DNA from: Candidatus Heimdallarchaeota archaeon
Lineage (GTDB): Archaea; Asgardarchaeota; Heimdallarchaeia; JABLTI01
Reading direction: 5' to 3'
DNA: 32,000 bases
Assembly: GCA_030614005.1 (NCBI GenBank)
Contig: JAUWKS010000021.1
Coordinates: 19,345 to 51,344 of the forward strand
Under the pieces are notes generated by a model that had not been told where the DNA came from, did not search any database, and worked only from the letters and a program-made list of their open reading frames with translations. Each line of letters opens with the position of its first letter. Within the stretch, counting starts at the first letter, position 1. The position numbers were made by a program, and so were the translations under genes. This document shows positions 14,229 to 32,000 of this stretch, piece after piece.

Positions 14229-17200
14229 TTAGCCTTCTAGTTCAGCTGAAGTTTTTAGTGCTCTAATTATTTGTTTTCTGATGTTTTTCACTGTCTTTAC
14301 ACCTAAACCTTTGACGGTTGATGTTTTTGCTATTTTTGCACTATGGAATTGTTTTACAGTATAAATTCCTGCTTTGTTCAGCTCTTCTTGCACCATTGGT
14401 GAAACGTGAGGTAATACTGCTACAGAAAGCATTTTTCGCATTTCAATGATATCTTCCTCTTTTACTCCTTTTACTGAACCCAATCTAGCGATACTTTTCT
14501 TGAAAATATCCCCTACAGATTTTACGCCCACCTTTGCTAATCGTTCTTCTGTTGTTTTGCCCATACCAGGAATTTTACTAATTCTAAGCGTAGGTTCTAG
14601 CATTCCTTTCGGTGGTCCTCTTACAATTTTAGTGGTTTCTTCAGCTTCTGCTTTTGGCTTCTTTGTGCCTAGAAATTCAGCTATAGAAGTATCTTTCTTC
14701 TCTGGTGATTTTGCTGGTTTTTTGGTTTTTGCAGATTTTTTAGCAGGTGGTTTTTCTTTAGTTGGTGCTACTTTTGTTGGTTTCTTGGCAGGTTTTTTCT
14801 TTTTCCTAGAAGGTACGGTCTTTGAACCTGGTGTCATCAGCAGTTTTTCTTCAATATCTAATTTCAATTTTGTAATCGTTAGTGAGCGTAATCCTCTTGC
14901 ATTTGTTAAACTATCATCATCTGCTTCGAAAAATTGTTGAACAGTAAATATACCCATTAGATTCAAATCACTTTTTCCTTCAAAATTAATTCTTGGCAAC
15001 ACTATAACATCTGTATTCCCACGATTGTCAGCTATTGTTTTTGCTCCGAGGCCTTTAATCTTTAGTAAGCGACTGTTGGCAACCATATAGAATTTGGCTA
15101 CTGTTTCAATACCTTTAGCTGATAATCTCGCAGCCATCGTTTTTCCTACACCACCCAATTCTTCAACTTCAGCATCTGCTTCAAGGAAGTCCGGAGGTGG
15201 AGTGGGCATTTTGACCTTAGTGGGTTGAGTGATAATGCCTTCATCATCCATTGATTCATCAATTTCTATTTCAGAGCTTTCTTCTCTAAGATTTTCAATA
15301 TCTAAATCAAGTAATGCTTTGATCAATTCAAATAAGATAGTAACCCGTTCTTCTGATAAGCCATGCAATTTGCTTAGCTCTTCTTCATCTGCTTCAAGAA
15401 ATTCAAGTATACTATAGACTTTGTTACTATGCAATTCCTCCACAGTTTTTTGAGTAATATTTGGTAAAACATCAACATTACATTTGGATTTTAGTTCAGC
15501 TATTATAACAATATTCAAACTGCTTTTGGTAAGTTCCTCATTTTCCATTAAGAAGAAATCTTTAATTGTTTTAACACCACGAGCACGAAGTGATTTCTGA
15601 GTTGCCGGACCAACACCAGGGAGAGTTGTCACTGAATCCATTCCTTCGTAAAGGTCCATACCATCAATTATTCCTCTATCTCGAGCAAATTCATCCAGTG
15701 CTTTAGCACTCACAGATTCAACCAATTCATCTTTTGCTAGCTCAGGTAACTCAAGAATAGCAACTAGAATTTGTTCTGCTTGATCTAATGCTTCTTCAGA
15801 TAATCCAAGAGAAATTAATTCTTGCATTTGTTCATCATCGATTAAAATGAGGTCTTGCAGAGTCTGAATATCGTATCTATCAAGATTAACACCCTCAATT
15901 GAATCTATAGGTAGAGCTTCAACTGGGATGGGGTTCTTTGGGAGAAAAATCGAACCATCTCTTTGTTTTAAACAATTACTAAATTGTGTGGAACTGAACA
16001 TAAATGGAAATTCATCTTCATCCATTTTTCCAAGCATTTGTCCAACAATTGATGAAACAGTAGGGGCGTATTTATCAAAGATTTTCATTCTTCTAGCTGC
16101 TTGTTCTTTTTTCTTCAAAGCTCTTTGGAAACTCATTAGTTTCCTTCCGGCTTTTTGTAAACATAACCTAAGTTCTCTTCTAATCTCATCTACTTCAGCA
16201 ATATATTCCTTGCTTGTTTCAGGGAAGGGTATTTTTGTACTAACTAATGACACGGCAAATATTATTGGATCATTATTGAGATTGGTTTTATAGTTGGACC
16301 AATTAATACCCTCAATTGTTTTCTTTATCAAATCATTTCCTTCACCAAATAGTAAAGGTATTCTGTTTGCAAAACGCATTAATTTGTATGGTGCACTAAT
16401 GTTTTCTCCACCATATCCTATAGCAACTTCAACCTGAAAAGCATGTCCACTGTAGCTTGAAGGTGGTCTGCCTTCTGAACAGCTGAATTCGGGTTGGTAA
16501 ACATCTTCCAAACCGGCTGCTAAATTTTCATGCCCTAATGGTGACAAACATTTACCATCGGGTGGGAAAAATTTAACCTTGGTAAATCCTTCATGAATTA
16601 ATCTTCGAAGCTCCATTTCATCTAAATTCAGGGGGTTTTTACTTGCCTTAATTTTAGATACTTTTAGAACTTGGGCTGCAGTTTTATCACCGATTCTCTG
16701 AAAATGGGTTTTCAAAAAATTCTTCATATCTTTACATTTTGTTCTAGAAATCTCGCTTTTTATTTGATTAATATCTGTACCAATTGGATGCAGTGGTACT
16801 TCAATTGGTGGTTCAGGAATTTCATCAACAGTTCTAGTATGAAAGATAGGTTCATCGGGATTGTCAGGAGTAGTAATAGTGAATGAAGCATATGGTGTTA
16901 TAACAGCCATTTCTTCTAAGTATTCAAAGATATATCTTTTGGAGCGTCTCCAAGTGCCTGCAAAACAACAAGTAACTTCTGTTCCATGTACTTTTAGTTG
17001 GTTCTTTGATTTACCAGAATATTTTGTTGAATCAACGATTTCAGGAGCGTTCTTAACAATATCAATAAACAATTTGTAATGACTGGTAAATTCAGCTGAT
17101 TTTTTCTTAGAAAGAGCTAATCGTGATTTAATTTCAAATGGAACTCGAATAGTTGATTGAGAATAAATTAAAACCATTTTTGCTCCTAAGCCGAAGCGAC

Positions 17201-17570
17201 CGCGTGATTGTCGTTCTCCATAATTGGAACCAGTAAGTACTCTTCCAAATAATTTTGGAATGTCAGCATGACGAATGCCAATTCCATTATCTCGTACAGA
17301 CAATCGAATGAATTCATTACCAGATTCCTCGTCGTGTCTGTAATCTTCAATACCCATTAACTCGCCGATTTCTTCTGCAGACATCAATTCGATTAGAATA
17401 TTGATATCAGGTAGAATTCCCCCTTTTTCAGCAGCATCTAATGCATTTTCGACTAGTTCTCTTATGCTTGTATAAGTAGATCTGGTAGGATTATCAAATC
17501 CTGCAATTGCTTTATTTGCTTCAAAGAATTCTGCAGCAGACCTTTCTATTATTTTCTCACGCGCTATCAT
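14229..17570 (-). CDS. top6B: DNA topoisomerase VI subunit B with a long C-terminal HhH-repeat extension
   Basis: GHKL motifs RELVENALDA, VRDNGIGI, SRGRFGLGAK and HGTEV; H2TH (FQRIGDKTA); transducer RFANRIPL. About 570 extra aa carry repeated GxG-type HhH motifs. Confidence 0.96.
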   Translation of the reverse strand: MIAREKIIERSAAEFFEANKAIAGFDNPTRSTYTSIRELVENALDAAEKGGILPDINILIELMSAEEIGELMGIEDYRHDEESGNEFIRLSVRDNGIGIRHADIPKLFGRVLTGSNYGERQSRGRFGLGAKMVLIYSQSTIRVPFEIKSRLALSKKKSAEFTSHYKLFIDIVKNAPEIVDSTKYSGKSKNQLKVHGTEVTCCFAGTWRRSKRYIFEYLEEMAVITPYASFTITTPDNPDEPIFHTRTVDEIPEPPIEVPLHPIGTDINQIKSEISRTKCKDMKNFLKTHFQRIGDKTAAQVLKVSKIKASKNPLNLDEMELRRLIHEGFTKVKFFPPDGKCLSPLGHENLAAGLEDVYQPEFSCSEGRPPSSYSGHAFQVEVAIGYGGENISAPYKLMRFANRIPLLFGEGNDLIKKTIEGINWSNYKTNLNNDPIIFAVSLVSTKIPFPETSKEYIAEVDEIRRELRLCLQKAGRKLMSFQRALKKKEQAARRMKIFDKYAPTVSSIVGQMLGKMDEDEFPFMFSSTQFSNCLKQRDGSIFLPKNPIPVEALPIDSIEGVNLDRYDIQTLQDLILIDDEQMQELISLGLSEEALDQAEQILVAILELPELAKDELVESVSAKALDEFARDRGIIDGMDLYEGMDSVTTLPGVGPATQKSLRARGVKTIKDFFLMENEELTKSSLNIVIIAELKSKCNVDVLPNITQKTVEELHSNKVYSILEFLEADEEELSKLHGLSEERVTILFELIKALLDLDIENLREESSEIEIDESMDDEGIITQPTKVKMPTPPPDFLEADAEVEELGGVGKTMAARLSAKGIETVAKFYMVANSRLLKIKGLGAKTIADNRGNTDVIVLPRINFEGKSDLNLMGIFTVQQFFEADDDSLTNARGLRSLTITKLKLDIEEKLLMTPGSKTVPSRKKKKPAKKPTKVAPTKEKPPAKKSAKTKKPAKSPEKKDTSIAEFLGTKKPKAEAEETTKIVRGPPKGMLEPTLRISKIPGMGKTTEERLAKVGVKSVGDIFKKSIARLGSVKGVKEEDIIEMRKMLSVAVLPHVSPMVQEELNKAGIYTVKQFHSAKIAKTSTVKGLGVKTVKNIRKQIIRALKTSAELEG

Positions 17571-17607
17571 TTCTAATGAACCTACTAGCCACCTTAATTT
17601 TTACTAA

Positions 17608-17877
17608 AAGGACAAGCTTGACACTATGTCCTTCTCTACATCCACCCGGGAATCCCTTCCACCTAGGGATTATTTTCTTATTTCAGATGCCTCTGAAAGA
17701 GTGAATTAAGAGCGAGTTTTGATTCAAATACTAAATTTAATTTCTTAAACTTATTGCTGTTGAATCCGCTCAAATTTCGTCCTTCATTATTTCACTTTCT
17801 CATTTCAAAGGGTTCTTTAATACTTTACCGTTCAAGCAAATTATCTTAATAACATTCAATTGTTAAACTACAATTGA
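17608..17877 (-). ncRNA. Candidate structured RNA downstream of the RAMP operon
   Basis: Five stems: 17608-14/17627-33, 17651-57/17665-71, 17681-87/17692-98, 17710-27/17760-71 (bulged) and 17856-63/17870-77. GC is 31/60 in 17611-17670. Strand and transcription are inferred. Confidence 0.35.
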
Positions 17878-17887
17878 TATACTCTGC

Positions 17888-18904
17888 CTATGTTCCGAGC
17901 CTTCTCTTCTTCGAGGTGGTTGCCCTCTCAGAGTCAGCATTGCTCATGGTCAAAGAAGAATGCATCTCAGCATCCATAGCAGTATCAAGTTCTTCTCTTT
18001 TACTTGCCGATAGTGAGATAGTTCCTTTTGATATTTTTAATCTTTTCTTATAGTAATCATTTATTGCCAGATTTACCATTAGCAACAAATGGTTTCTTAA
18101 ACTACTAATTCCATAATCCATTGATTCCACTATTCGCTCTAATTCTTTTGAATGATAGATGTAATTATATAATCTATATGGAGAATGTTGAACTTGCTCA
18201 AGGTCTTGTTTTAAAAGTTTGAAATCTATTTCTCCATTCTCCCGATTATATCGACTTGGAACTTTGAATCGCTTCTTTCTACTGATTGAAGATGCAAGTC
18301 TATCGTAATACTGCAAAATTGGCAAGAGAGCATTTGTATGTTCTGCACCATTATGATGATTCACACAAGCAGTTCTAATTTCTTCATCTTCGATTTGTAA
18401 CTCTTGATAGATTTTACTTGGATGTCGCTCTGTATGAACGAAATCGTGAAGCATTAATACTTTAAGTAATTTTAACAATTTTTCAGGATAATTTACCCCT
18501 AATCCTTTCCTAATTTTGAATTCCTTTCTTTGGTTCGCTTTCGTATGAATAAAGGACTCAATTTTACATTCAAGCCATTTCACTCGACCGAAACCTTCAG
18601 AGGAATAACTGCCAAGAAAACGATTGGTCATAAAGGAAGAAATTTTGGTAAGAAGCTTCTCTGTATTATACCCTACACAGCTCACTTGCACAAATCCTCG
18701 ATAGGCATGTAAAACGGTCGGTGCTCTTGATTCCCCTTTCACCAATTTGCTAAAGGAAGTCAATAGTGGTTTTTTTTCTCCGTTACGATCTCCTATTACC
18801 TTTATCCAACAAGCTCCTTTCTTCACGAGTGGTTTGGAAAGGATGATTGGTGTATCTAAGCGACCAATTAATGTAACCTTTTTCTTTAATTGTGGTTCTG
18901 CCAA
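17888..18904 (-). CDS. RAMP (Cas5-like) domain fused to a Cas10-type HD nuclease fragment
   Basis: N-terminal ~120 aa end in a RAMP glycine-rich loop (FLGSYSSEGFGRV). HD motifs follow (LMLHDF...VNHH...YYDRLASS), then SSLRNHLLLMVNLA, which resembles the Cas10/Cmr2 'SL-x-DH' segment. No palm or GGDD. The TTG start overlaps the cas7 stop. Confidence 0.75.
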   Translation of the reverse strand: MAEPQLKKKVTLIGRLDTPIILSKPLVKKGACWIKVIGDRNGEKKPLLTSFSKLVKGESRAPTVLHAYRGFVQVSCVGYNTEKLLTKISSFMTNRFLGSYSSEGFGRVKWLECKIESFIHTKANQRKEFKIRKGLGVNYPEKLLKLLKVLMLHDFVHTERHPSKIYQELQIEDEEIRTACVNHHNGAEHTNALLPILQYYDRLASSISRKKRFKVPSRYNRENGEIDFKLLKQDLEQVQHSPYRLYNYIYHSKELERIVESMDYGISSLRNHLLLMVNLAINDYYKKRLKISKGTISLSASKREELDTAMDAEMHSSLTMSNADSERATTSKKRRLGT

Positions 18905-19830
18905 GCCTTTCTCACCTTGCTTAATTCTTCGTTCAAGTTCTCCGCTCTTTCTTCCTCAATGATAGCGATTTTTCCATTACCATTCTCTTGTCCCAACTTT
19001 CTCTCAAAAACAACCCTTTCAAAAGAAATGTCTCTCATCTCAAGACGACCATACCCGCTTTTTCCGCCTCTTCCTAAATGAGTTATTCCGAAAATTCCTT
19101 TTACGAGTAATCCTAGCAACCATTGCGGTAATTCTTTAGAGAATTCCACATAGAATTGAAACTCTCCGGAGAAATATTGTTCAGAGAAATCCTGAAGTGG
19201 TTTTTTGTCTCTTCTGGATGAGTGGCGATTCTCTGTTGAAATATACACAAATGAAAGACCGGTTTGTTTGGTTATTTTGTCCAATGGTTTGTCTGTCTGA
19301 ATGATAGCATCGCTCCAGACTCTAATAGGGGATTCTTCACCTAACATTCCGAATAATTGTCTAATGGCACAAGGATTTTCTCCACAAGCACCCATGAGAT
19401 GTTCGTGTTCAAGAAGAGTCGATTTACCAGTTCCTTGAAATCTTTCCTTTAAAGTTGGAGAACAATAATCAATTCCTTTCTGGTGAAGAATATTCATTAT
19501 ACTATGACGAATAGCACCACGTATTCCTTTAACCACTCGAGAGACTCCTTTATCATCTTTGAGGATTGTTAGTTGGACTTTCGCATCAGCTTTTTTCCCT
19601 TCTGCTTTTACTCGCAAATCATTGAAATCATCAAAGATACTATCTTTGTTTTGTCTCAAGAAATCCTCTAATTCTGCTACTTTAACATTGGTCTTTCCAA
19701 TATATTGGTAGGGTATTTCTCCTCCTCTCATCAAGTAAGAGCTTTTTCCACTACTACTATTCAGTGGTTTCGCCCACCACGCTTGAACTTTTACTGATAT
19801 TCTGTTGAACTCGTTTTTCATAATAATCAT
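18886..19830 (-). CDS. cas7: Cas7-group RAMP protein (Csm3/Cmr4-like)
   Basis: KGIRGAIRH (the 'SSLKGALR' helix), ACGENPCAIRQLFG (Zn-binding C..C..LFG), thumb region ENRHSSRRDK, and G-loop HLGRGGKSGYGRL. Confidence 0.86.
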   Translation of the reverse strand: MIIMKNEFNRISVKVQAWWAKPLNSSSGKSSYLMRGGEIPYQYIGKTNVKVAELEDFLRQNKDSIFDDFNDLRVKAEGKKADAKVQLTILKDDKGVSRVVKGIRGAIRHSIMNILHQKGIDYCSPTLKERFQGTGKSTLLEHEHLMGACGENPCAIRQLFGMLGEESPIRVWSDAIIQTDKPLDKITKQTGLSFVYISTENRHSSRRDKKPLQDFSEQYFSGEFQFYVEFSKELPQWLLGLLVKGIFGITHLGRGGKSGYGRLEMRDISFERVVFERKLGQENGNGKIAIIEEERAENLNEELSKVRKAWQNHN

Positions 19831-19920
19831 TCCGTATATACAAAAATATATACAAAAGATAACATATAAACGTACCTAATAAGCAGCTTTTAATAATATA
19901 TAAGTCAATAATTTATTATT
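19831..19920. promoter_or_regulatory. Divergent promoter region between cas7 and abrB with an 11-bp tandem repeat
   Basis: 90-bp AT-rich spacer with TATATACAAAA at 19835-19845 and 19847-19857, plus TATA-like TATATAAG near 19897. Confidence 0.45.
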
Positions 19921-20106
19921 ATGAACAAAGATCAAGATTCAGAAACCTTTCTGAAGAAAAAATACAAACTTACTAAAGTAGGAAATTCATTCAAAATAAC
20001 TTTACCAGTTGATTTTGTGAAAGGATTTGGGTTTGAAGAAGGGGAAGATCTAACAATAGCAATTGATATTGCAAATAAACGTTTTATTATAACTAAAGAG
20101 GAGTAA
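19921..20106 (+). CDS. AbrB/MazE/SpoVT-family DNA-binding protein
   Basis: 61 aa, KLTKVGNSFKITLPVDFVKGFGFEEGEDLTIAID, the typical swapped-hairpin pattern; ends 2 nt before the next gene. Confidence 0.82.
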   Translation: MNKDQDSETFLKKKYKLTKVGNSFKITLPVDFVKGFGFEEGEDLTIAIDIANKRFIITKEE

Positions 20107-20108
20107 TT

Positions 20109-21302
20109 ATGTCTATTGACAATATTTTAGGACAGATTAAACTAGCGGAAGAAAATCTCTTCGAAGAAGATCGACATAAAAGACAAGAGGCAATTCATAC
20201 ATTTCCTCGAATTTTAAATGCTAGAAATTATACAGTAAGAGAAGCATTGAGAGTAAAAGGACTAATTAAACCAATTATCCCAAAACTTATTGAGATAATG
20301 AAAACTGATGCTGATATTGGTTTACGCAAAATTGCTGCAAAATCTTTAGGTGATATGCCAATCTATGATGGTATCTACAAAGAGTTGCTTGAGATTTTTA
20401 AGCTTGGAGAGATGGAGAATGAATTAAGTTGGGCGGTAGGTGAGAAATTATTTAATTTTCCAGATTCTTATCTTGATATCAAAGAAATACTTCTTGAGAT
20501 GCTACAATCGAATAACCATAATCATAGAATACTAGGTTTAGCAATGATTCGAAAATATCGGGAAAGCTCAGGTCGTTCAGGAAACGAATATCTAGGTTCT
20601 GTTTCAAGAATTCAACTTGAGAAGGATTGGTTACTAATTCTCCGTAATTTAGTCCGAGAGGCTAAAACTGAAGAAGATGCTCAACCTGCCTATGTTACTC
20701 TTGAAAAAATCTCTCCCGATAAATCAGCTGAACGAAAATTATTCCAGAAGGAATTATTATACAAAGTTATGTATGAAATTCTTGTCAAAATCCAACCTGA
20801 AATCCAAGTGCAGTTAACTAGAATTATGGAATTAACAACTCCTCTAATACAAGAACATGGTAAAATCCCCAAAAGAGCTGAATTAACTAACCTTGATTAT
20901 ACCAAAGAACTCCATGAGGCGACAATAAAGGAACTTGTTCAAAACGAAGATATCAAAGGAGAGTATTTTGAATTGGAGCAAGTTTTTGTCAAAAAAGGCA
21001 AAGAAATAAAGTTTTCCTTGACTTCATCCAAAATTGCTAAGAAATATTTGTGCAACAATTGTGGTTCCTCTATTAAGCATGAGGATCAAACTTGTTCAAC
21101 CTGTAAAGAAGAAATCCTCAAATGTAATGTTTGCAAACTGCCAATTTCCTTTGGAGAAGAAATAGGTATATGTAAACATTGTAAATCTAAGTCTCATTTG
21201 AGCCATCTTCAAGAATGGGTGAAAATAAAGGGAAAATGCCCCACTTGTCAAAAAAAGTTGCAGTCGGAAGAGATTATAACACTTTCTAAGAACTCAAACT
21301 AA
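20109..21302 (+). CDS. HEAT-repeat protein with C-terminal zinc ribbon and RING-like domain
   Basis: HEAT-like units (DADIGLRKIAAKSLGDM, NHNHRILGLAMIRK), then CNNC...CSTC and CNVCKLPI...CKHC...HLSH..EW...CPTC. Confidence 0.75.
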   Translation: MSIDNILGQIKLAEENLFEEDRHKRQEAIHTFPRILNARNYTVREALRVKGLIKPIIPKLIEIMKTDADIGLRKIAAKSLGDMPIYDGIYKELLEIFKLGEMENELSWAVGEKLFNFPDSYLDIKEILLEMLQSNNHNHRILGLAMIRKYRESSGRSGNEYLGSVSRIQLEKDWLLILRNLVREAKTEEDAQPAYVTLEKISPDKSAERKLFQKELLYKVMYEILVKIQPEIQVQLTRIMELTTPLIQEHGKIPKRAELTNLDYTKELHEATIKELVQNEDIKGEYFELEQVFVKKGKEIKFSLTSSKIAKKYLCNNCGSSIKHEDQTCSTCKEEILKCNVCKLPISFGEEIGICKHCKSKSHLSHLQEWVKIKGKCPTCQKKLQSEEIITLSKNSN

Positions 21303-21365
21303 GGGGCACTTAAGTAAGGAAAAAATTAGTACAATACTGATATTAACCTGTAAGAGAGAATAATT

Positions 21366-22937
21366 TTGCTAAAGCCACTTTCTTGGACAAATGACCCATT
21401 ATTATTTGATAGTGAACCTTCTCCAGTTAATAAGTGGATAAATGCTAATGAGCTTATTCAACAGAACCGGAGTAAAGAGATTTTTCTCCCAGAAAGTCAA
21501 CAGTTACATCTCTATCCTATAATGGTTCGTAGGAATGATTTTGTTCGGTTGAAATCTTCTGACCGAATCATGGCTCGATTTCCATTCATGGAAATTAGCG
21601 AGGAAAGTCAAGAACGAATCATGGATAAGATCCTTCTTCTCTCTGAATTAACTCGAGACTACTTTTACAAATCTATCAATAAATCAATTCTTCAATGGAA
21701 AGAGGACATTCTAAGATATCTAAAGCGAGGAGCAATTCCTTATCCAATAGTAAGGAGTTTCTTCGAATTAGAACCAAGTTTTTTTTCTATGTATAATAAG
21801 ACCTCTCTTCACTTCACAAGTGCTCGTGGAGAAGAGTTCAAGATGCCGACCACATTAACGAAAGAGCTTGCCTATCTTGCGGGGATGGTCAATGGTGATG
21901 GTAACTTGCAAAAATATACTCTACGAATCGTCGACTTTTCCATTACGAATATCAAGCAGCTCCAAAAGATGTTCCAGGATTATTTCGCACAAACAGGGAA
22001 CATTCTCTTTAAAACACCCAACAGTCCGGAAGTAGTGATAACGAATCTCTGGGTGGTAAGGTTATTCTCATTCTTAACAGGACAACCAATTGTAATGAAG
22101 AAGTATGCCCATCTAGGTGAACCATTGATCTTCAAACAAGAGCTTTATCGTTCCTATTACTGGTCTGGAGTGATGGATGCAGATGGGAGTTACAGGAATA
22201 GGAATGTTAAATTTGTAAGTGCTTCTATAAAGTACGTAAAAGATTTCAAAAAATTTCTTTTTGAAAATAAAATAGACTCTAAATTGACTGAGAGAGAGGA
22301 TAATACAGTTATCTTGTACATCCCAGCTAGATTCTATACACAGTTATCGAAATTGTTGACTTGTTTACACCCAGAAAAGAAACACGAGTTTAATAAATTG
22401 AAAATAACTCCCTATCGCTCAGCAACTTTTTTTGCGGGATTCAAAAAATCAACTCTAGTCAATGGTTATTTCAATTTCAGACTTATAGGTAATCTAAGTG
22501 TAGCTAATTTAGGAGACACAATTCGTCAATTCCGAGGAAAACAATCAAGAAAAGCTTTTATCGAAAAAGTATCTATTAGTGAAAGAGCATTACAAAATAT
22601 AGAAAAAGGGAAAATGAGTATAAACATTCTGCTTTTAGATGAAATATTAAAACAAAGAAACCAACTGCTGATGTCTTTTCTCTCTCAACAAGAAGCAAGT
22701 CTTTATCACATTCGAAGTTCAACACCTGTGAAACTCGCTACACAACCGAACACACAGCTCGCATCTCTACTGAAATCATTACTCTTTTACAAGAAATGTC
22801 TCAAAATTCCGAATAGTAGCGATAAACTTGCTAAAGAACTAAAAGCTTATTTTCAAGTAACTATAAAAAACAATCAAATAACCAACAAATTACTTTTACT
22901 ATTCTTTTCTACTTTTTGTGAGACAAAACTTTTCTAA
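21366..22937 (+). CDS. Free-standing double-LAGLIDADG endonuclease-like protein with an XRE-type HTH
   Basis: LAYLAGMVNGDG and YWSGVMDADGS motifs; HTH segment LGDTIRQFRG..SRKAFIEKVSISERALQNIEKG; no intein splice-junction motifs seen. Confidence 0.85.
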   Translation: MLKPLSWTNDPLLFDSEPSPVNKWINANELIQQNRSKEIFLPESQQLHLYPIMVRRNDFVRLKSSDRIMARFPFMEISEESQERIMDKILLLSELTRDYFYKSINKSILQWKEDILRYLKRGAIPYPIVRSFFELEPSFFSMYNKTSLHFTSARGEEFKMPTTLTKELAYLAGMVNGDGNLQKYTLRIVDFSITNIKQLQKMFQDYFAQTGNILFKTPNSPEVVITNLWVVRLFSFLTGQPIVMKKYAHLGEPLIFKQELYRSYYWSGVMDADGSYRNRNVKFVSASIKYVKDFKKFLFENKIDSKLTEREDNTVILYIPARFYTQLSKLLTCLHPEKKHEFNKLKITPYRSATFFAGFKKSTLVNGYFNFRLIGNLSVANLGDTIRQFRGKQSRKAFIEKVSISERALQNIEKGKMSINILLLDEILKQRNQLLMSFLSQQEASLYHIRSSTPVKLATQPNTQLASLLKSLLFYKKCLKIPNSSDKLAKELKAYFQVTIKNNQITNKLLLLFFSTFCETKLF

Positions 22938-23025
22938 AATTCTGATAAAATATTAGAAAAAATAGGAATAAACTGAACTTCAAATTTACCTAATGTACAA
23001 GAGGGGTATTTCGAGGCATTTTTGG

Positions 23026-23057
23026 GCTTTAAAATGACTTTCTTGCTGTTTTAAAGC
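23026..23057. repeat. 9-bp perfect inverted repeat (possible operator or hairpin)
   Basis: GCTTTAAAA (23026-34), a 14-nt spacer, then TTTTAAAGC (23049-57). Confidence 0.5.
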
Positions 23058-23088
23058 ACTTAGAATCGACCTTTGATTTATGCTTTCA

Positions 23089-23192
23089 GACTTTTTTGCG
23101 AGAAGTGGTTTTTTCTCATATTCTAGTTATTCCTCGGTAAGTTTTATGATTTTTTTGTGAGTAATCTGTGAGCTTTTTGGACTTTTTTGTGA
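23089..23192 (+). repeat. Three copies of the 13-bp motif GAYTTTTTTGYGA
   Basis: GACTTTTTTGCGA at 23089-23101, GATTTTTTTGTGA at 23148-23160 and GACTTTTTTGTGA at 23180-23192, upstream of the wHTH-cas1 operon. Confidence 0.7.
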
Positions 23193-23242
23193 TTTAGTAC
23201 TTTAAATGGTAATTTTGTCAAGTAAATGAACAAGGGATATTT

Positions 23243-23983
23243 ATGTCGATTCATGATCCATTGATTCTAAAAACAAGTTCGAAGTATTCATTACCTGAAT
23301 TTAACTCTAAGGTTAAATTCACTTCTGTAATGGAAGAAGTGCTGTACACACTCTTAACTTTCTTCATCCTAAGTGGTGAATCAAAATTTACAAATGTGGT
23401 GAATGATTTGATAGGTGTACTTGATCGTTCCCAAAATGCTATTGGCTCTGCCTTAAAATCTCTTGAACAGTTGGAGCTACTAGCTTATTATCGAGATGGT
23501 AGATTTAGAACCGTCGAACTACATCTAGAAAATGATTTCCTGAAAAGCGTTACTGCAAGATTCTTTGGAATAACTGATTTTACGAGTATGAAATGCAAGA
23601 AATTGAAGCAAATGCTCTTTGGTTTTTATCCAATACTTGATTTTGAGCGAACCATGACAATGTTTCAAAACGAAACTGAGCGTTTGGTTTTGTTGGTGGA
23701 TGATTACCAACACTTGTTTGATTGGGTTAATAAAATTGAGGAATTGGAAAGATTAGCGAAAATTACTCACTCTACTGATGATACTGTTGATGACAATCCA
23801 ATTTTATTATTTATCGATAAAATTGTATGTGCGATAAAATATAAAAAAATGCAACAAACTGCTGATCTAACATTTCAAGAATTATCTGAAATCGTTAATG
23901 AGATTGTTTCAGAATTTCAAAAAATTCCTCCTTGGTCAAATGATGCTGTAAGTGGAAGGTGTAATATTTGGACTCACATATAG
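23243..23983 (+). CDS. Winged-HTH domain protein
   Basis: FTNVVNDLIGVLDRSQNAIGSALKSLEQLELLAYYRDGRFRTVEL wHTH pattern with a helical C-terminus; overlaps the next gene by 16 nt. Confidence 0.68.
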   Translation: MSIHDPLILKTSSKYSLPEFNSKVKFTSVMEEVLYTLLTFFILSGESKFTNVVNDLIGVLDRSQNAIGSALKSLEQLELLAYYRDGRFRTVELHLENDFLKSVTARFFGITDFTSMKCKKLKQMLFGFYPILDFERTMTMFQNETERLVLLVDDYQHLFDWVNKIEELERLAKITHSTDDTVDDNPILLFIDKIVCAIKYKKMQQTADLTFQELSEIVNEIVSEFQKIPPWSNDAVSGRCNIWTHI

Positions 23984-25986
23984 GAGGATTTGTTGTGAGT
24001 TATACAAAAAACGAGCTCAGAGAACGAATTTTCTCACTTTTCACTCAGGATGAGATCGGCATGGTTGGTCTCTCTAACAGAGAAGTTTCAGAACTAATTG
24101 GCAAGGAATCGAAGGATACCAATCAAGTATTGAAGGGATTAGCTGATGCTGGCAGGTTATCACGCAAGAAGATTAAACGTGGTGTTGATCCAAAAGTTTT
24201 CGTTTACTTTTCACCATCTTTTGAAGTAATTGATGAAGCTCCCGAAAGGCTTTGTAATAACTGCCAAAGACTATCTGGTTTAGAGAAATGTATTTTGCTT
24301 AGATTAGTAAAAGAAACAGCTGCTTGGGCTTTACGTGATGACTTAAAAGCACGTGCAAATGCAATTAGTTTGTTAGGTGTTGAAGGTTGTGACTTTCATG
24401 ATCCTAGACAAAAAGGTCAGTGTAAGTGTAAAACGATGAAGGATTTTCTCAACACTAATACTGATCCTGTTACCTTTGAAGTTCGTTGCCCTATAGATCG
24501 ATGCCGTGAAGTCATTGATGAGCTCAGTATTTCTCTAGAAAAAAAGAACATAGGTGCGAACACTTTGTATTGTCCTCATTGTGGTTCTCCTATCAATTTC
24601 ACCTTCAACCATAGTTTAGGGAGATACAATGTTCAATACTATGATAGTCGTTTTGATATTATGCAACGAGATTATAAACTGATCACAGGTATGGATCTTG
24701 AGAGTAGGTATGTTTCAGATCGTTCCCATGGTTTTTCTCTTGTAAAAGAAGAGAGTTTTCATCTTGATTTAGAGAATAATGAAACTATCTATATTGGAAA
24801 TGAATTAACCCCTACTGAGTTTATAGATTCAAAAGATCTTGCTTATTTTTCTTTGAATCAATTGGATTACATAGCGGTAAAGGATGCTGATGATTATCTC
24901 TATCTAAGAGACAAATTGCATGAAATTGATCCTGCGACAAATAAATCTCTCTATTATAATATTGAGCTTTTACACTCAAGTAAACCAATTGAGAGTACAG
25001 AACCGTCATTAAAGGAAATCGGTGGTAATGAGATTCTAATCGCAACAGGAGCAATATTCTTTCCGATGTTTTTCTCCAATATTCTTGACCGGAGAGCAGT
25101 TCTTAAAAAGAAAATGGTTGATATGACAGATACTGAATTTCGAAGTGATTTCAAAAGCGCTCTAGCACGTTTTGATAGGAATATCAAGAAATATCGCACT
25201 CCTTGGAACATTTCCTCTCGAGAATGGCAACAGAATGAAGGTGGTTTTGCTAGCCTAATGGACACTCCATTCAAACAAGAAGCTGAGAAATATGGATTCG
25301 AGAATCTTTCGAGAGAGAAATCTAGGATGGTCCGAGGGGAACCTTTCATGCATTATGGATTATTCACTGCTCGAGCACCTAAAGCGAGTTTTGAAAATGG
25401 TGTGAATAAAGTAACTGATAGATACATTAAGGAAAAAATCTATAATGATCTTTCTGTTCCGTGGAATGATTTGCGAGGATGGTGCCATAGAAAATACTCC
25501 TTTGGTTTGTTTCTGGATTATATTGAACCACCTAGAGCAGTTGCACCATTATGGATAAATGAAGCTATTAGAAATAAAGAGATCACTCCGAATGATTTTA
25601 AGATAGAGCGAGGAAAAAGGTTTGAGAAATTCTATTATATTAAACCTAATTCTCATGCACACGAAGTTGTGAAACGAGTAAGCAATCAAATTCTCTGCAC
25701 AAGATTTACTCTTACTACTGGCTCGGAGCTTACAATGAAACAGATGATAGAGAAATCTGTTACTCAATTAAAACAACTCTTAAATCGACTTTCTAACTCT
25801 ACTGTTGAATTATTTACAGAAAACAGAATAAATGGTCCTGTAAAGACCATCTGGAAGAAACTACAAGAAACAAACAACAAGAACTACTTGACTGCCAAAG
25901 AATATCAAATGTTACAAAAACATGTTCAACATTTCTTCCGAGAAGAATTTTCTTTTGAACCTTATACAATTGCTGAGATTCAGTAG
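23968..25986 (+). CDS. cas1: Highly diverged Cas1-family integrase with N-terminal wHTH and Cys-rich Zn-binding region
   Basis: C-terminal half has QNEGGFA (Glu codon 25237-39) and RGWCHRKYSFGLFLDYIEPPR. His (25486-88), Asp at +10 and Glu at +13 match the E. coli Cas1 H208/D218/D221 spacing. N-terminus has a wHTH and CNNC, CDFH, CKC, CPIDRC and CPHC motifs. Confidence 0.8.
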   Translation: MDSHIGGFVVSYTKNELRERIFSLFTQDEIGMVGLSNREVSELIGKESKDTNQVLKGLADAGRLSRKKIKRGVDPKVFVYFSPSFEVIDEAPERLCNNCQRLSGLEKCILLRLVKETAAWALRDDLKARANAISLLGVEGCDFHDPRQKGQCKCKTMKDFLNTNTDPVTFEVRCPIDRCREVIDELSISLEKKNIGANTLYCPHCGSPINFTFNHSLGRYNVQYYDSRFDIMQRDYKLITGMDLESRYVSDRSHGFSLVKEESFHLDLENNETIYIGNELTPTEFIDSKDLAYFSLNQLDYIAVKDADDYLYLRDKLHEIDPATNKSLYYNIELLHSSKPIESTEPSLKEIGGNEILIATGAIFFPMFFSNILDRRAVLKKKMVDMTDTEFRSDFKSALARFDRNIKKYRTPWNISSREWQQNEGGFASLMDTPFKQEAEKYGFENLSREKSRMVRGEPFMHYGLFTARAPKASFENGVNKVTDRYIKEKIYNDLSVPWNDLRGWCHRKYSFGLFLDYIEPPRAVAPLWINEAIRNKEITPNDFKIERGKRFEKFYYIKPNSHAHEVVKRVSNQILCTRFTLTTGSELTMKQMIEKSVTQLKQLLNRLSNSTVELFTENRINGPVKTIWKKLQETNNKNYLTAKEYQMLQKHVQHFFREEFSFEPYTIAEIQ

Positions 25987-25998
25987 GATGATGAGAAA

Positions 25999-26685
25999 AT
26001 GACAAAAAAACATGCAACCATAACAATATATGATTCTCTAAGAGATTTGAATAGAGTTATTGCTCTTATACTGGTAGATGGTGATTCAAGAATTCGAATA
26101 ATGGAAAATAGGCTCAACTATAGATCTGTTTTACACAAAGTTGTTTCTAAAGGATTCATTCGTACACATGAGATAGTTACTAATTGGCTAATAGAATTAT
26201 TTGAAAATGGGGAAACAACTTCTCTAACGTTTCATGAGATAATGGATAAACTACCTTGGTCCTGGGATACGACTCGAGAGTACTTTGATTCTTTAGAAGA
26301 AGAAGGTATTGTACAATATTCACGTGATTCTCAAGGAAGAAAAATTTGCACCTTAACAATTGAAAGTGAGTCTAGAGCAAAGCAGATAGATAATTTGCTC
26401 AAGTTTTCTAAAAGAAATGAAACACACTCACTAAATACTATTTCAGAAGCAAGAAAGGAATTTGCCAAGTATAATACAAAATTGAATGAATGGTTTTGTA
26501 TGAACTATAAAATGAATGATCTGAGTTCTCAGATTAAGCAAGCCCCATTATCTACAGTTGAAAAATTCATCGAGACTATAACCAAAATAATCAATATATC
26601 CAAAGAAGAAGATCTAAGATTGAATCTATTAGACTTTTTGAAGCAATACCCATTATTGCTATATTCAATAAGGAAGGTTGAGTAG
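25999..26685 (+). CDS. Winged-HTH domain protein
   Basis: SLTFHEIMDKLPWSWDTTREYFDSLEEEGIVQYSRDSQGRKICTL wHTH pattern; operonic spacing (12 nt upstream, 2 nt downstream). Confidence 0.68.
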   Translation: MTKKHATITIYDSLRDLNRVIALILVDGDSRIRIMENRLNYRSVLHKVVSKGFIRTHEIVTNWLIELFENGETTSLTFHEIMDKLPWSWDTTREYFDSLEEEGIVQYSRDSQGRKICTLTIESESRAKQIDNLLKFSKRNETHSLNTISEARKEFAKYNTKLNEWFCMNYKMNDLSSQIKQAPLSTVEKFIETITKIINISKEEDLRLNLLDFLKQYPLLLYSIRKVE

Positions 26686-26687
26686 AT

Positions 26688-27452
26688 TTGGTAGTCAGGG
26701 AGTACGAATTAAATCTTAGTGCAACAGAATTTCTATATTTTCTAGATTGCCCCCAGAAATTCAGAATTTATCGTATCCTTAATCCTTTACCATACAAAGA
26801 AAATTTCTTGAGTAGTAGAAGGTCATTATCTTCTTACAAAATGCGAGGATACCAGGGAAAGAAGAGTGATGGTATCGATTATCATAATTTCTTTGAAACA
26901 TTTCATAGAAAGTATGCAAATGTAATCAGTCAAACAATACCCCCAGATGAAGTATGCAAGGACAATGTAAAATTACTTTACTGGACTGAACAACAGAAAA
27001 ACTACTTTACAGCAAAAGAGGATTGTTACTGGTATCCAATTGATAAAGAAATTCGATTAATGACTGAAAAGAAAAGAGGGGTGATAGATTGTATAGAATT
27101 ATGTGAAAAAAGGAATGGTTTTAGGATTATAGATTATAAACCAACATTTGATTCCAATGATCATCTTCTATTGCTGTTTTATGCAAGTTTATTCAACGAA
27201 TATCGCTTAGAGAATAAAGATGAAGGAGAATATGATTTTGATGTTTTGGAGGTTGGTTGTTATTATTATGAAATGGGTGTAAGAAAGGTCTATAATTTGA
27301 AAGAAGTAAACATTTTAGCATTTGAAAGAATTTTTGTTAAGTCATTGGAAAAAATTCTTAATAATGAATTCTTTTTAGATAAAAGCTCTTGTTGGGGTTG
27401 TATTTTCATACGTATCTGTAAGATAGAAAAGAGTAGAGAATATAGATCTTGA
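26688..27452 (+). CDS. cas4: Cas4-like PD-(D/E)xK nuclease with Fe-S ligands
   Basis: N-terminal CPQKF plus C-terminal CWGCIFIRIC give four Cys; GIDYH; E.RL...RGVID; IIDYK. The QxxxY motif is degenerate (LLLFY). Confidence 0.85.
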   Translation: MVVREYELNLSATEFLYFLDCPQKFRIYRILNPLPYKENFLSSRRSLSSYKMRGYQGKKSDGIDYHNFFETFHRKYANVISQTIPPDEVCKDNVKLLYWTEQQKNYFTAKEDCYWYPIDKEIRLMTEKKRGVIDCIELCEKRNGFRIIDYKPTFDSNDHLLLLFYASLFNEYRLENKDEGEYDFDVLEVGCYYYEMGVRKVYNLKEVNILAFERIFVKSLEKILNNEFFLDKSSCWGCIFIRICKIEKSREYRS

Positions 27453-27505
27453 ATATTTAATAACAAGAAAACAACCACAAAAAAATAGATTTATAAAAAG
27501 TCAAA

Positions 27506-28100
27506 CTATTTCTTGATTTCTTCAATAATTGGCACTATACCTTCCAATGGCATATTTTGTAAACAGTTTGGACATGTACCTTGTGTTTTCACCTACTCTT
27601 GTAGATGTTTCAGATGGCTCTTTGCTTCACATAAAGAGCATTTACCAATTTCTTCAGCAAAGGAGATTGGAAGTTTGCATACAGAGCATGTAAGTATTTC
27701 CTTTTGGCAGCTGGAGCATTTTTTCGAAGCAAAATTATCAATAATATTTCCACAAGAATTACAAGAATATATTCTAATGGTTGAAATTGGCTTTTTAATT
27801 AAATCTTGAATAATGCCATCAGTTTTCTCTTTCTTAATGAAAACTTGTTCATATGGTTTATACTCACCTAATTCAGGTTTTTCTTCAAGAATTTCCTTGA
27901 TTAGCTCTTCAACGATTTCCTTTGGAACAGAAGATAATTCAACGATACGAGGTAAGAGCATAGGAATATTAGGAGTAACCTTCAAAAGAATATCTAAGAT
28001 TATTTTATAACTAATTTGTTTTTTCTTTTGTTTTATTGCTTCATAGTATGGATAAGCAAATTTTTCAACATCAGAATAACCTTTTTTCACAGCGAATGTA
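27506..28100 (-). pseudogene. Zinc-ribbon/RING protein remnant with in-frame TAG and missing 5' end
   Basis: Homologous to the C-terminal ~180 aa of 20109-21302. TAG at 27593-95 replaces the Trp of HLQEW, and the frame continues VKTQGTCPNCLQNM...KK to a stop at 27506-08. The annotated start region (28101-28162) is antisense to the FG-GAP gene. Confidence 0.8.
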
Positions 28101-28847
28101 ATTATTGCAGATTTATATAACGACGGTGAAATAGAGATAATTTTCGGTTCTGAAAATAGCAATATAATCTGTCTAAACAGTCAAGGGAAAAAACAATGGT
28201 CATATAGTACAGATGATTGGATATTTTCTTCACCGGCAATATATGATTTAGATAAAGATGGCTATAAGGAAATTTTAATCGGTTCTTATGATAAAAACAT
28301 CTACTGTTTAAATTATGATGGTTCTTTGTCTTGGAAATTTGCCACTGATAATCTAATTTTCTCCTCTCCCTCTGTTACTGATTTAGAGAATGATGGATTT
28401 ATGGAAATTCTTTGTGGTTCTGATGACAATTATCTTTATTGTTTGGATTATTTGGGTAAAGAAATTTGGTCGTATAAAACAGATAATATGATTTTTTCCA
28501 GCCCTTTAATTGCTGATATTAATAATGATGATTTGTCGGAAATAATCATCTGTTCTACAGACAATTTCGTTTATTCCTTATCTCTAACAGGTGTTTCTCA
28601 ATCAGGGGATAACCCTTGGTATTGTTTCAGAGGTTCTATTCTCCATACCGGGTGGATGGATTCTGACAATGATTTCATAGATGATCTAACTGAAAGCTAT
28701 CTTAGTGATCCCGATTATCCTCTTACGAACAACATCTTCCCCTCATTTGACTTGTCAAATAAGAACTCAATAATAGTAGTAACTCTGGTATCCATAACAC
28801 TAATATATATACTTCGAACGAAGAGAAAAAGAAAACGCTTCGTTTAA
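28101..28847 (+). pseudogene. FG-GAP/VCBS-like beta-propeller surface protein, 5'-truncated
   Basis: The frame is open from 28080 with no start until 28326. Four repeats: ADLYNDGEIEIIFGS, YDLDKDGYKEILIGS, TDLENDGFMEILCGS and ADINNDDLSEIIICS. It has a W.CFRG...HTG motif and a C-terminal TM plus KRKRK, but no signal peptide. Confidence 0.78.
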
Positions 28848-28871
28848 TAACATCAATTAATACTTGCTTGC

Positions 28872-28937
28872 AGCGACACCGATGTACCAAAAAGGTTAAT
28901 GTTCCTCAAAACATAACTTGAACATCGGTACGTCGCT
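28872..28937. other. Long imperfect intergenic stem-loop
   Basis: AGCGAC/ACCGATGT (28872-85) pairs with ACATCGGT-ac-GTCGCT (28922-37); an inner stem GTT(A)ATGTT/AACATAAC is also present. Confidence 0.6.
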
Positions 28938-29019
28938 CATTTTCTATCTTTTTATAGTTTGAATTACACTTCTTAGCAAGTTTGAAAGCATTAATCATTG
29001 AAATTTGAGGAACATTAAC

Positions 29020-29376: not shown

Positions 29377-29665
29377 GTTCATTCTTCCCTTTCTTTTTTT
29401 ATAGCGATAAAAATCATGTTAATACAAAAAAATTTCAATAACAAAAAATGCTTTCATACTCCCAATTCTAAGTGTCCATTTCTTAATATTTAACCTTTCA
29501 AGTGAAGCAAAACAAGGAATAGGAAAAATGTCAAACACATGACTTTTGTCCCCCGACACAAACAGTTTTTTTGGGAAATGGTTAAATAATATCATCAGTT
29601 TCGTAATTCTGATTACTTTTCTCTGGAGAGAGAGAAAATCTAAGAAAGAAAAAGGATGTATTATT

Positions 29666-31309: not shown

Positions 31310-31384
31310 ACAAATTTTAATTGTAAAATGAGTATATAACTATCATATACTCGTTCTACAATAACATATTGGAGGAAAATTATA

Positions 31385-31987: not shown

Positions 31988-32000
31988 TTTTTCTTCTACA

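Follow-up and report, generated by a model that had tools for sequence, protein, structure and literature searches.

A covariation-supported structured element at the end of an Asgard RAMP/RAMP-HD cassette, adjoining the upstream region of top6B

ARAMP and HRAMP modules, array-less derivatives of CRISPR systems, are described in a review as enigmatic in mechanism, and no RNA component is mentioned there (PMC8730458, citing Makarova et al., 2020). A locus of this type in a Heimdallarchaeota genome raises the question of where an RNA belonging to such a module might be encoded. The window, by which we mean the whole 32,000-nt stretch of DNA that was analyzed, carries on its minus strand a 314-aa Cas7-like RAMP ORF (18886..19830; Pfam RAMPs PF03787, E = 2.9e-6), followed by a 338-aa RAMP-HD ORF (17888..18904, stop at 17888) and then by top6B (14229..17570; 1113 aa; Pfam Topo-VIb_trans at 7e-50, HATPase_c and HhH repeats). 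The first-pass annotation mapped these ORFs correctly, including the stop at 17888 and the top6B start at 17570, and proposed that the hairpin-dense stretch at 17608-17990 might be a guide or scaffold RNA of the RAMP operon. We consider it very probable that this stretch is instead a lineage-specific junction at which two unrelated functional units, both encoded on the minus strand, meet: the top6B upstream region and an RNA element at the cassette end, for which boundaries, synteny, copy number, covariation and strand were established directly. As judged from comparison with relatives, most of the flagged stretch is top6B upstream region, and the element that overlaps the RAMP-HD gene is reached only at its far edge.

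The two RAMP genes form a repeated unit. The genome that holds the window (G000) contains seven paralogous cassettes, which share DNA similarity over the two genes and about 45 nt after the stop only, and each copy has the Cas7-like RAMP gene together with the HD gene. We identified 120 homologues of the RAMP-HD ORF, mostly in Heimdallarchaeota metagenome-assembled genomes, and seven paralogs in G000, and found the HD-type residues H153, D154, H161, H183, H184 and D201 to be invariant in 30 homologues. Many of the cassette copies are pseudogenes. Its gene order, Cas7-like RAMP and then RAMP-HD, and its Asgard host place the locus among the ARAMP modules; like the ARAMP and HRAMP loci of the review (PMC8730458), it combines this gene pair and an Asgard host with the lack of a CRISPR array and with a PD-(D/E)XK (Cas4-like) gene in the island. 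A 672-aa ORF in the cassette context had no Pfam match. The lack of an array, as noted in the initial annotation, was borne out within the 32-kb window, where our repeat search returned neither a CRISPR array nor any tandem repeat with a period above 23 nt. Nor did a tRNA scan of the window find a tRNA. Rfam gave no match at the gathering threshold across the whole window, and lowering the cutoff to E = 10 for 17300-18300 yielded two chance-level matches only, both with E above 5.

All five stems on which the original proposal rested could be located on the minus strand. These were a 7-bp stem close to the top6B start (17608-14/17627-33); a 7-bp stem, AATCCCT/AGGGATT (17651-57/17665-71), which lies within the GC-rich patch and had been likened to IS605 ends; a 7-bp stem, TTTCAGA/TCTGAAA (17681-87/17692-98), inside an 18-nt imperfect pair (I1); a bulged stem, GATTCAA/TTGAATC (17721-27/17760-66), enclosing an inner palindrome; and an 8-bp stem (17856-63/17870-77) located 10 nt after the RAMP-HD stop. 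A sigma-70 promoter and terminator scan is unsuited to archaea, and its output was used as a list of hairpins only. The GC values reported earlier were also reproduced, at 51.7% in 17611-17670 and 48% in 17891-17990, while the spacer as a whole has a GC content of 33.1%, equal to that of the genome (33.5%). Compared with shuffled sequences, the spacer folded with z = -2.38 on the minus strand (2 of 100 shuffles were as good) and z = -2.67 on the plus strand, and the flagged range 17608-17990 with z = -3.52. The predicted folding excess was thus present, but modest: among 30 other intergenic gaps of 280-400 nt from the same genome the mean z was -0.86, and since three of these 30 reached -2.38, hairpin density alone is unexceptional.

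Comparison with related genomes assigned the greater part of this segment to top6B. In all ten related Heimdallarchaeota genomes of the same family, the region at 17571-17842 precedes top6B and is itself preceded by a class II (D/K/N) aminoacyl-tRNA synthetase (aaRS) gene, with the RAMP operon absent from that place. Identity to two close relatives, G010 and G001, was 88-90% over window positions 17300-17842, and homology stopped at 17842. Between G000 and G010, the leader was identical at 241/272 positions (88.6%) as opposed to 297/410 four-fold degenerate sites of top6B (72.4%; Fisher p = 3e-7). The first-pass annotation had itself named the 5′ leader of top6B as a competing identity for the segment, and for 17571-17842 this is what we found. 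The proposal that the RAMP operon has its guide or scaffold RNA in the hairpin-dense, GC-rich spacer at 17608-17887 is refuted by synteny and very unlikely, even with the position of the spacer directly after the operon on the same strand and its several stable stems (z = -2.4 to -3.5): G010 and G001 have the same sequence before top6B and behind the aaRS gene but no cassette next to it, the six other cassettes of G000 and about 40 copies in relatives carry nothing similar past the element end (the shared similarity stopping about 45 nt after the RAMP-HD stop), and in G000 the two parts became neighbors through a recent rearrangement. The likeness of the hairpin at 17649-17671, GGAATCCCTTCCACCTAGGGATT, to an IS200/IS605-type transposon end or a MITE scar fared worse still. 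With a T-rich run after a short, GC-rich hairpin, the site does recall such ends, but the 23-mer was unique in the 3.6-Mb assembly even at up to four mismatches, the 317-nt spacer was single-copy there and syntenic in two other species, and the flanking genes are top6B and RAMP-HD rather than transposases. The spacer, being unique in the genome, is not an IS or MITE scar, and we regard the transposon-end origin as scarcely credible.

The top6B upstream region (17571..17842, minus strand) comprises a promoter-like block and a presumed 5′ leader of about 240 nt, and contains four of the five flagged stems together with the GC-rich patch. Across all 11 top6B upstream regions, which span two genera, no non-coding stretch is better conserved than the block ATTTGCTTGAACGGTAAAGTATTAAAGAA (17812..17841, minus strand). 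From the position and conservation of these 30 nt, which are the grounds for the assignment, we infer a promoter-like role, the block being a BRE/TATA candidate; a k-mer scan of the whole genome brought out no clear TATA signal. Close to the start codon, a hairpin (17608..17633, minus strand) with a purine-rich 5′ arm, GAGAAGGAC, and the 3′ arm GTCCTTTT forms at the same position in 9 of the 11 relatives with changed arms, such as AGGATG/CGTCCT in G004 and AAGAGGA/TCCTCTT in G007, and a strain variant within it (17627 T>C) retains a U-G pair only on the minus-strand RNA. Finally, the block GGTGGCTAGTAGGT (17580..17593, minus strand), located 9 nt before the top6B ATG, is nearly invariant in the 11 relatives and resembles a ribosome-binding site; in the k-mer scan, GGTG was enriched genome-wide at -20 to -1 of start codons, a clear ribosome-binding signal. 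In this arrangement, transcription would begin just downstream of the promoter-like block and run through the presumed leader and its partly conserved purine-rich hairpin to the RBS-like block before the ATG. The layout resembles an archaeal BRE/TATA promoter with a long 5′ UTR in having an AT-rich conserved block fixed upstream of one gene, a variable leader and a conserved ribosome-binding region, and differs in that the start is presumed, and in the great length of the leader (about 240 nt), some of which is conserved in three species only.

The remaining leader hairpins showed less sign of selection for structure. The AATCCCT/AGGGATT hairpin (17651..17671) was restricted to G000, G010 and G001, the stem at 17681-17698 was broken in G010, and none of the leader hairpins other than that at 17608-17633 displayed covariation. 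Among the three close genomes there was no net covariation in the leader hairpins (covariation term +1.35), and RNAalifold on a MAFFT alignment of the 11-genome leader returned no consensus structure. We also considered a 42-aa ORF that runs antisense to the leader (17577-17705, plus strand) and rejected it, since nearly every substitution altered a residue and the frame was shifted in G001. It is unlikely that the spacer holds, beyond a plain leader, a separate small RNA or regulatory element found only in the clade of G000, G010 and G001. The spacer is conserved above neutral sites, includes a 54-nt stretch with a single G000/G010 difference and exceeds its counterparts in the rest of the genus by about 75 nt, all of which could be accommodated by such an element; against it stand the missing net covariation, the missing Rfam match and the poorly kept, frame-shifted antisense ORF. 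Most likely, the GC-rich leader hairpins have an ordinary role in tuning the stability or translation of the top6B-top6A message.

The point at which top6B upstream region gives way to the cassette could be placed at 17843-17845, a junction spanned by contigs from two independent studies. In G010, 5.5 kb of DNA (an M20 peptidase gene, three further ORFs and the aaRS gene) separates the cassette end from the top6B upstream region. In G000, this 5.5-kb aaRS block is now found on another contig (C4:780-6297) without the 30-nt conserved block, which after the rearrangement stayed with top6B and not with the aaRS gene. Judged from this gene order, a recent rearrangement brought cassette and top6B together in G000. 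Contig C67 does not overlap at its end with the start of C4. The far flank of the window (27457-32000) aligns to G010 only in patches.

On the cassette side of the junction, the hairpin after the RAMP-HD stop and the odd last ~100 nt of the ORF, both of which the first-pass annotation had singled out, proved to be parts of one structured element of about 174 nt (17846..18019, minus strand), here referred to as the ARAMP tail RNA, which covers the 3′ end of the RAMP-HD gene and is found at every cassette. Read along the minus strand, it consists of two stem-loop domains within the last 44 codons, the stop codon, a GCAGAG motif (17882-17887), an 8-bp hairpin and an RBS-like end motif. Domain 1 (17964..18019) is a 56-nt imperfect hairpin closed by ATCTCA/TGAGAT, and domain 2 (17899..17938) is a three-part stem-loop formed by GCT/GGC, CTC/GAG and GAGG/CCTC; both lie wholly inside the ORF, in codons 295-335. 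Domain 3 (within 17856..17887) is the 8-bp hairpin TCAATTGT/ACAATTGA with an A-rich loop. The end motif TGTTATTAA (17846..17854), the counterpart of GGTGATA or GGTTAYTA in other copies, marks the place at which homology stops, both among the copies and with G010. A single-sequence fold reproduced the three domains. A 29-aa ORF that covers the gene end in antisense (plus strand, from 17891) was discarded, as it is cut off early in most copies. TATA-like runs that might have indicated an internal promoter occurred upstream of ATCTCA at inconsistent distances.

Several lines of evidence indicated that the nucleotides of this element, and not only the encoded residues, are under constraint. In the last 48 codons of RAMP-HD, third positions were identical at 80/94 sites (85%) compared with 249/458 (54%) elsewhere (p = 8e-9), and the sequence was still conserved at four loci where the ORF terminates inside or before the element (L114, L033, L034 and L051); the element also survives where the gene has decayed. 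Across 19 sequences, 94.6% of cells paired, and double changes were seen at 11 pairs compared with 5.0 in shuffles (0/500 as good), so that the suggestion to look for covariation at homologous loci was answered positively for 17846-18019. When we extended this to 47 distinct copies, using an alignment that was fitted to the covariance model and therefore inflates pairing, 92% of cells paired and 19 of 30 pairs showed double changes: 11 of 20 in domain 1 (helices 1-4; 70-98% of cells paired) and 8 of 10 in domain 2 (helices 5-7; 91-96%). Compensatory cells numbered 134 against 43.7 in shuffles, slid controls gave at most 0.054 against 0.321, and no shuffle reached the observed values. Domain 3 was scored with a custom script because MAFFT left this hairpin out of register. 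It occupies the same position in paralogs despite unrelated arm sequences, with a mean stem of 6.0 bp in 13 copies versus 4.3 bp in shuffles (0/300 shuffle sets) and, in the larger set, at least 5 bp in 38/47 copies with 43 distinct 5′ arms. A pair of strain variants in this hairpin (17857 C>T with 17876 G>A) was compensatory.

These patterns also allowed us to weigh RNA against DNA. G-U pairs are abundant, with pair 12:79 being GU in 34/47 copies and 130:179 being UG in 37/47, and since they become A-C mismatches on the other strand, they place the fold on the sense strand only. In one sample we observed a patch of paralog-type substitutions at 17930-17957, from which we conclude that gene conversion contributes to the nucleotide identity among copies. 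This patch, the many pseudogene copies, the variety of genes (and a tRNA-Gly) that the copies adjoin, and a G000/G010 breakpoint lying exactly at the element end would all fit a function at the DNA level, such as an attC-like site for recombination at the end of a mobile cassette, or else concerted evolution through gene conversion with no RNA involved. Integron attC sites are likewise imperfect hairpins that close a gene cassette at its 3′ end, with structure conserved over sequence and with varied neighbor genes. In contrast to attC, however, the element has G-U pairs, which would be weak in DNA and point to RNA, two more conserved domains inside the ORF, and neither an integron integrase nor an attI site; we found no recombinase within the repeated cassette unit, and compensatory changes across genera are not a product of gene conversion. 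We rank this explanation third and think it rather improbable. The covariation and the strand preference argue that 17846-18019 is a folded element, most likely the 3′ part of the cassette transcript, acting as RNA.

The element follows the cassette closely. With the covariance model, which scored the window copy (17847-18019) at 182 bits, we located it at 50 places in 12 of the 82 genomes of the class, nine of them in G000 (all seven cassettes and two remnants). It was confined to cassette-bearing genomes and present at every cassette, including a paralog with a protein only 37% identical. Four further loci (L112-L115) lay outside the genomes first searched, and an exact-pattern scan of metagenome contigs returned 4 loci only. 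Two distant ARAMP-like loci, one from Borrarchaeum and one from Promethearchaeota, gave no match to the model; their post-gene gaps folded at z = -3.0 and -0.5, respectively.

What the predicted RNA does is a matter of weighing its two kinds of company, the RAMP genes within the cassette and the genes behind it. Our first-ranked reading, which we hold tentatively, is that the RAMP proteins of the cassette may assemble on this RNA or use it to regulate themselves. That the element occurs only in genomes with cassettes, and that no cassette lacks it, speaks against the second-ranked possibility, somewhat less probable in our estimate, that it acts mainly on the gene after it, as a 5′ leader or a processing module, and not as a partner of RAMP proteins. 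Here, a cassette whose insertion had separated a housekeeping gene from its promoter would supply its own outward-reading leader and ribosome-binding site. In keeping with this, the end motif (GGTGATA / GGTTAYTA) matches the ribosome-binding signal of the genome, with GGTG at -8 to -14, and about 15 of 47 copies are followed, within -2 to +7 nt of the motif, by an unrelated gene (ABCE1, eS19, L37e, RFC-like protein, M20 peptidase, zinc-ribbon protein or kinase), the motif standing 4-7 nt ahead of its start codon. Intact solo or remnant copies are kept before the genes for ABCE1, eS19 and L37e, and such solo copies without adjacent RAMP genes weaken the idea of a RAMP partner. The leader explanation is in turn at odds with the window copy, which has no following gene, and with other copies whose neighbor is a convergent tRNA-Gly or lies at least 20 nt away.

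The two roles could also coincide, although we give this little weight: the element would serve the Cas7-like/RAMP-HD pair as its RNA partner and, at the same time, the essential gene behind it as a leader, genes of this kind behind element copies being those for ABCE1, eS19, L37e, EF-2, RFC-like protein and tRNA endonuclease. The RAMP proteins would then sit on a fixed, self-encoded RNA and, once triggered, cut or block the leader and so shut down the translation gene. In a weaker variant, suggested by analogy with TnpB, flanking sequence past the 3′ end of the RNA may form a guide.

Comparison with better-known systems helped us to place the element. The initial idea of a RAMP-linked RNA overlapping the gene end in the manner of TnpB holds at 17846-18019, and fails for the GC-rich hairpin segment in which it had been sought. 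Like the omega-RNAs or reRNAs of TnpB and IscB (IS200/IS605, OMEGA), the element is a structured sense-strand non-coding RNA (here predicted) over the 3′ end of an effector ORF, with a sharp end at the limit of the repeated unit and a structure kept by compensatory changes. It differs in that the proteins are RAMPs (Cas7-like and RAMP-HD) and not RuvC nucleases, in that the variable parts are the stems of domains 1 and 3, and in the lack of transposon ends, of TnpA and of any sequence or Rfam similarity. As with a type III crRNA, a Cas7 backbone and a Cas5-like subunit would be its binding partners; unlike such a crRNA, the element has no repeat-spacer units, with one fixed RNA per cassette and variable stems in place of a single-stranded spacer.

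The ~174-nt element is an addition to the description of ARAMP in PMC8730458. For placement, the lesson is that experiments should aim at 17846-18019 and not at 17608-17840, where the GC-rich hairpins are those of an ordinary gene leader. ARAMP modules are cataloged as CRISPR derivatives without an array, and a folded RNA at every copy is an obvious candidate for their missing RNA component or for a control element, which makes the question of an ARAMP RNA component testable by experiment. Should the element prove to join both roles, as partner of the RAMP pair and leader of an essential gene, these cassettes would embody a self-contained abortive-infection mechanism that needs no CRISPR array.

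The window corresponds to C67:19345-51344 of a 3.6-Mb Heimdallarchaeota (Asgard) metagenome-assembled genome (33.5% GC). On its minus strand, a RAMP gene (18886-19830; 314 aa; Pfam RAMPs at 2.9e-6) precedes a RAMP-HD gene (17888-18904; 338 aa; no Pfam match), and a 317-nt minus-strand spacer (17571-17887) separates this pair from top6B (14229-17570; 1113 aa), with top6A next in order. The DNA runs that hold the window sequence originate from cold-seep and marine sediments. Top6B ends in a C-terminal tail (14229-15940) built of helix-hairpin-helix repeats (Pfam HHH_5, 1e-29), and the counterpart of the whole gene in G010, a genome of the same genus, is a 1114-aa ORF in the same place. We also observed 1.9 copies of a tandem TATATACAAAAA repeat at 19835-19857, in the short stretch from which the RAMP gene and the plus-strand genes upstream of it diverge. 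We found no CRISPR array in the window, and the gene pair conforms to the array-less ARAMP class, whose mechanism is termed enigmatic in a review that mentions no RNA (PMC8730458).

The first-pass annotation had read 17608-17990 as a candidate guide or scaffold RNA of this operon. Its five stems are all present at their positions, and its GC values hold (51.7% in 17611-17670, 48% in 17891-17990; 33.1% for the spacer overall). The spacer folds better than its dinucleotide shuffles (z = -2.38 for the minus strand and -2.67 for the plus), as does 17608-17990 (z = -3.52), but of 30 further gaps between genes in this genome, each 280-400 nt long, 3 also reach -2.38 (mean z of the 30, -0.86), and hairpin density by itself is unremarkable here. 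A transposon origin of the IS605-like hairpin, as an IS end or MITE scar, was not borne out: the spacer is single-copy, and the 23-mer is unique in the genome even at four mismatches.

We searched 40 relatives for DNA homologous to the window and found that 17300-17842 matches single places in G010 and in G001, also of the same genus, at 88-90% identity, with homology ending at 17842. In these two and eight further family genomes, the gene preceding top6B ends with a class II aminoacyl-tRNA synthetase (aaRS) motif (Pfam tRNA-synt_2 at 1e-72), and none of the ten carries the RAMP operon beside top6B. All 11 top6B upstream regions share a 30-nt block, ATTTGCTTGAACGGTAAAGTATTAAAGAA (17812-17841, minus strand), and a second block, GGTGGCTAGTAGGT (17580-17593, minus strand), just before the top6B ATG; the stretch between them is variable (195-274 nt), and the ribosome-binding signal in the source genome is GGTG. 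The leader is under constraint, since its identity to G010 (88.6%, 241/272) exceeds that of four-fold degenerate top6B sites (72.4%, 297/410; p = 3e-7). Among its hairpins, only the start-proximal one (17608-17633) recurs in more distant relatives (it forms in 9 of 11, its arms altered in G004 and G007); the GC-rich hairpin at 17651-17671 is limited to the source genome, G010 and G001, and that at 17681-17698 is broken in G010. RNAalifold gave no net covariation in the leader hairpins, and a 42-aa antisense ORF was rejected, its protein not being conserved. From these comparisons, we conclude that 17571-17842 is the probable top6B promoter and 5′ leader region, in which the 30-nt block, given its conservation, position and retention beside top6B after rearrangement, is a putative promoter. 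The guide or scaffold reading was thus mistaken for most of the range, which is ordinary top6B leader.

The remaining edge, 17846-17990, lies inside a structured element of about 174 nt (17846-18019, minus strand), and here a RAMP-linked RNA survives in spirit. From 19 copies, RNAalifold predicted a 56-nt imperfect hairpin closed by ATCTCA/TGAGAT (17964-18019, minus strand) and a three-part stem-loop (17899-17938, minus strand), with 94.6% of cells paired, 11 of 30 pairs changed on both sides (5.0 ± 1.4 in shuffles; 0/500), and a covariation score of 0.204 versus 0.137 in shuffles and at most 0.086 in slid controls. A covariance model built from this alignment matched the window at 17847-18019 (182 bits) and found 50 places in 12 of 82 class genomes (10 of 11 in the family, one elsewhere). 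The sole match outside the family (G072:C164:3650-3819; 56 bits) could reflect horizontal transfer or bin contamination. Across 47 distinct copies, in an alignment fitted to the model, 92% of cells pair (82.5% in shuffles), 19 of 30 pairs and 134 cells are changed on both sides (11.3 and 43.7 in shuffles), and the covariation score is 0.321 (0.161 in shuffles; slid controls at most 0.054). Folded singly, the window copy shows all three domains, at a z of only -2.1. Because G-U pairs are frequent, the fold exists on the sense strand only, which argues for an RNA nature; that the element is a DNA-level site we consider improbable. Rfam gave no match, and the edge at 17846-17990 is predicted to be part of a genuine structured RNA, so far uncatalogued, that goes with the RAMP cassette.

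The source genome holds seven cassettes and two decayed remnants (C9:62948-157518, C122:8420-10153, C83:2073-3803, C94:2258-2428), four of the cassettes lying 25-34 kb apart on contig C9, and the model's nine places there are exactly these. Just upstream of the remnant at C9:140338-140510 we noted a TnpB-like C-terminal region with zinc-finger and RuvC-like motifs (about 140600-141400). Relatives can carry as many as 13 copies of the element, many of them in genes that contain internal stop codons. DNA similarity among the seven cassettes is limited to the two genes, and third-codon identity between paralogs is 85% (80/94) in the last 48 RAMP-HD codons versus 54% (249/458) in the rest (p = 8e-9). 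As judged from the copies, this conservation is not a protein constraint, because the nucleotides are kept where the ORF stops earlier or the tail is absent: three copies stop 14 codons earlier at a shared stop, one ORF (L114) ends inside the first domain, and some other homologues lack the protein tail entirely. An antisense ORF across the gene end is not kept among copies and was rejected. From the stop onward, 13 distinct copies follow one plan: TAG-GCAGAG, a fixed-place hairpin with an A-rich loop and unrelated arm sequences (the flagged 8-bp hairpin, 17856-17877), and an end motif (GGTGATA, GGTTAYTA or GGAGAYA), with unrelated genes beyond. One base pair of the hairpin is changed on both sides in a strain variant (17857 C>T together with 17876 G>A). 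In one sample's contig, six substitutions and two compensating 1-nt indels at 17930-17957 yield the sequence type of the C9 paralogs, which points to gene conversion among the cassette copies of the population.

In G010, an M20 peptidase gene begins 4 nt past the end motif of the orthologous RAMP-HD remnant; after it come three ORFs, the aaRS gene, the leader and top6B. The 5.5-kb block from M20 peptidase to aaRS gene is missing from the window and lies at C4:780-6297 of the source genome (87% identity), adjoining an ArdC-like gene that carries an HExxH motif and sits at the edge of the contig (C4:1-6297, compared with G010:C39:163000-179500, locus L022). The breakpoints coincide precisely with the cassette end (17846) and with the point where the conserved block starts (17842). 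Two independent studies supplied contigs that span the junction; a third study's contig ends at 17842, where loose letters resemble the aaRS-side spacer of C4. The relocated block and the bridging contigs indicate that the cassette/top6B adjacency is real but recent and lineage-specific. The displacement would be a rearrangement or a mobile-element insertion, its other junction being unassembled. Comparing window 26794-27456 and 18657-19029 with L022:4981-6002, we observed a G010 island remnant in which the 3′ part of a Cas4-like gene is fused to an inverted RAMP/HD piece plus the HD gene's C-terminal half. The similarity shared by the two genomes stops directly past the Cas4-like stop (27452-27456), and the ~9.6-kb island at 17846-27456 may be one unit with defined ends.

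We tentatively regard the element as an RNA partner of the RAMP proteins or an autoregulatory RNA, at somewhat under an even chance, given that it strictly accompanies the cassette and that RAMP proteins are RNA-binding. The element is still recognisable in a paralog with only 37% protein identity; the model did not detect it downstream of two distant ARAMP-like genes from other Asgard groups. In layout it most resembles the TnpB omega-RNA, another RNA that overlaps its effector gene at the 3′ end. The cassette proteins bear no relation to TnpB, and a guide role for the element would be hypothetical. A slightly less probable role is that of a leader or expression-coupling module for the downstream gene: about 15 of the 47 copies have, 4-7 nt past the end motif, the start codon of an unrelated gene that often functions in translation (ABCE1, eS19, L37e, RFC-like protein, M20 peptidase, zinc-ribbon protein and kinase genes follow the motif), and copies, intact or remnant, without a functional RAMP-HD gene persist upstream of ABCE1, eS19 and L37e genes.

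Four Heimdallarchaeota loci from other assemblies (L112-L115) also carry the element, in the order divergent AbrB/MazE-like gene, RAMP pair, then a tRNA endonuclease, L37e, aminotransferase or tRNA-Gly gene. Genes directly after cassettes in other assemblies include EF-2 (L135:2247 onward), L37e (L113:2603-2761) and tRNA-splicing endonuclease (L112:2708-3298); by inspection rather than statistics, translation genes are strikingly over-represented among cassette neighbours. A convergent tRNA-Gly(TCC) gene directly adjoins the element end in two loci (L038:1371-1446, L115:2552-2627), and tRNA-end-like sequences, uncalled by ARAGORN, do so in four others (L047, L077, L027, L075). Taken together, the sharp end, diverse neighbours, tRNA adjacency and many pseudogene copies suggest a cassette that is, or once was, mobile.
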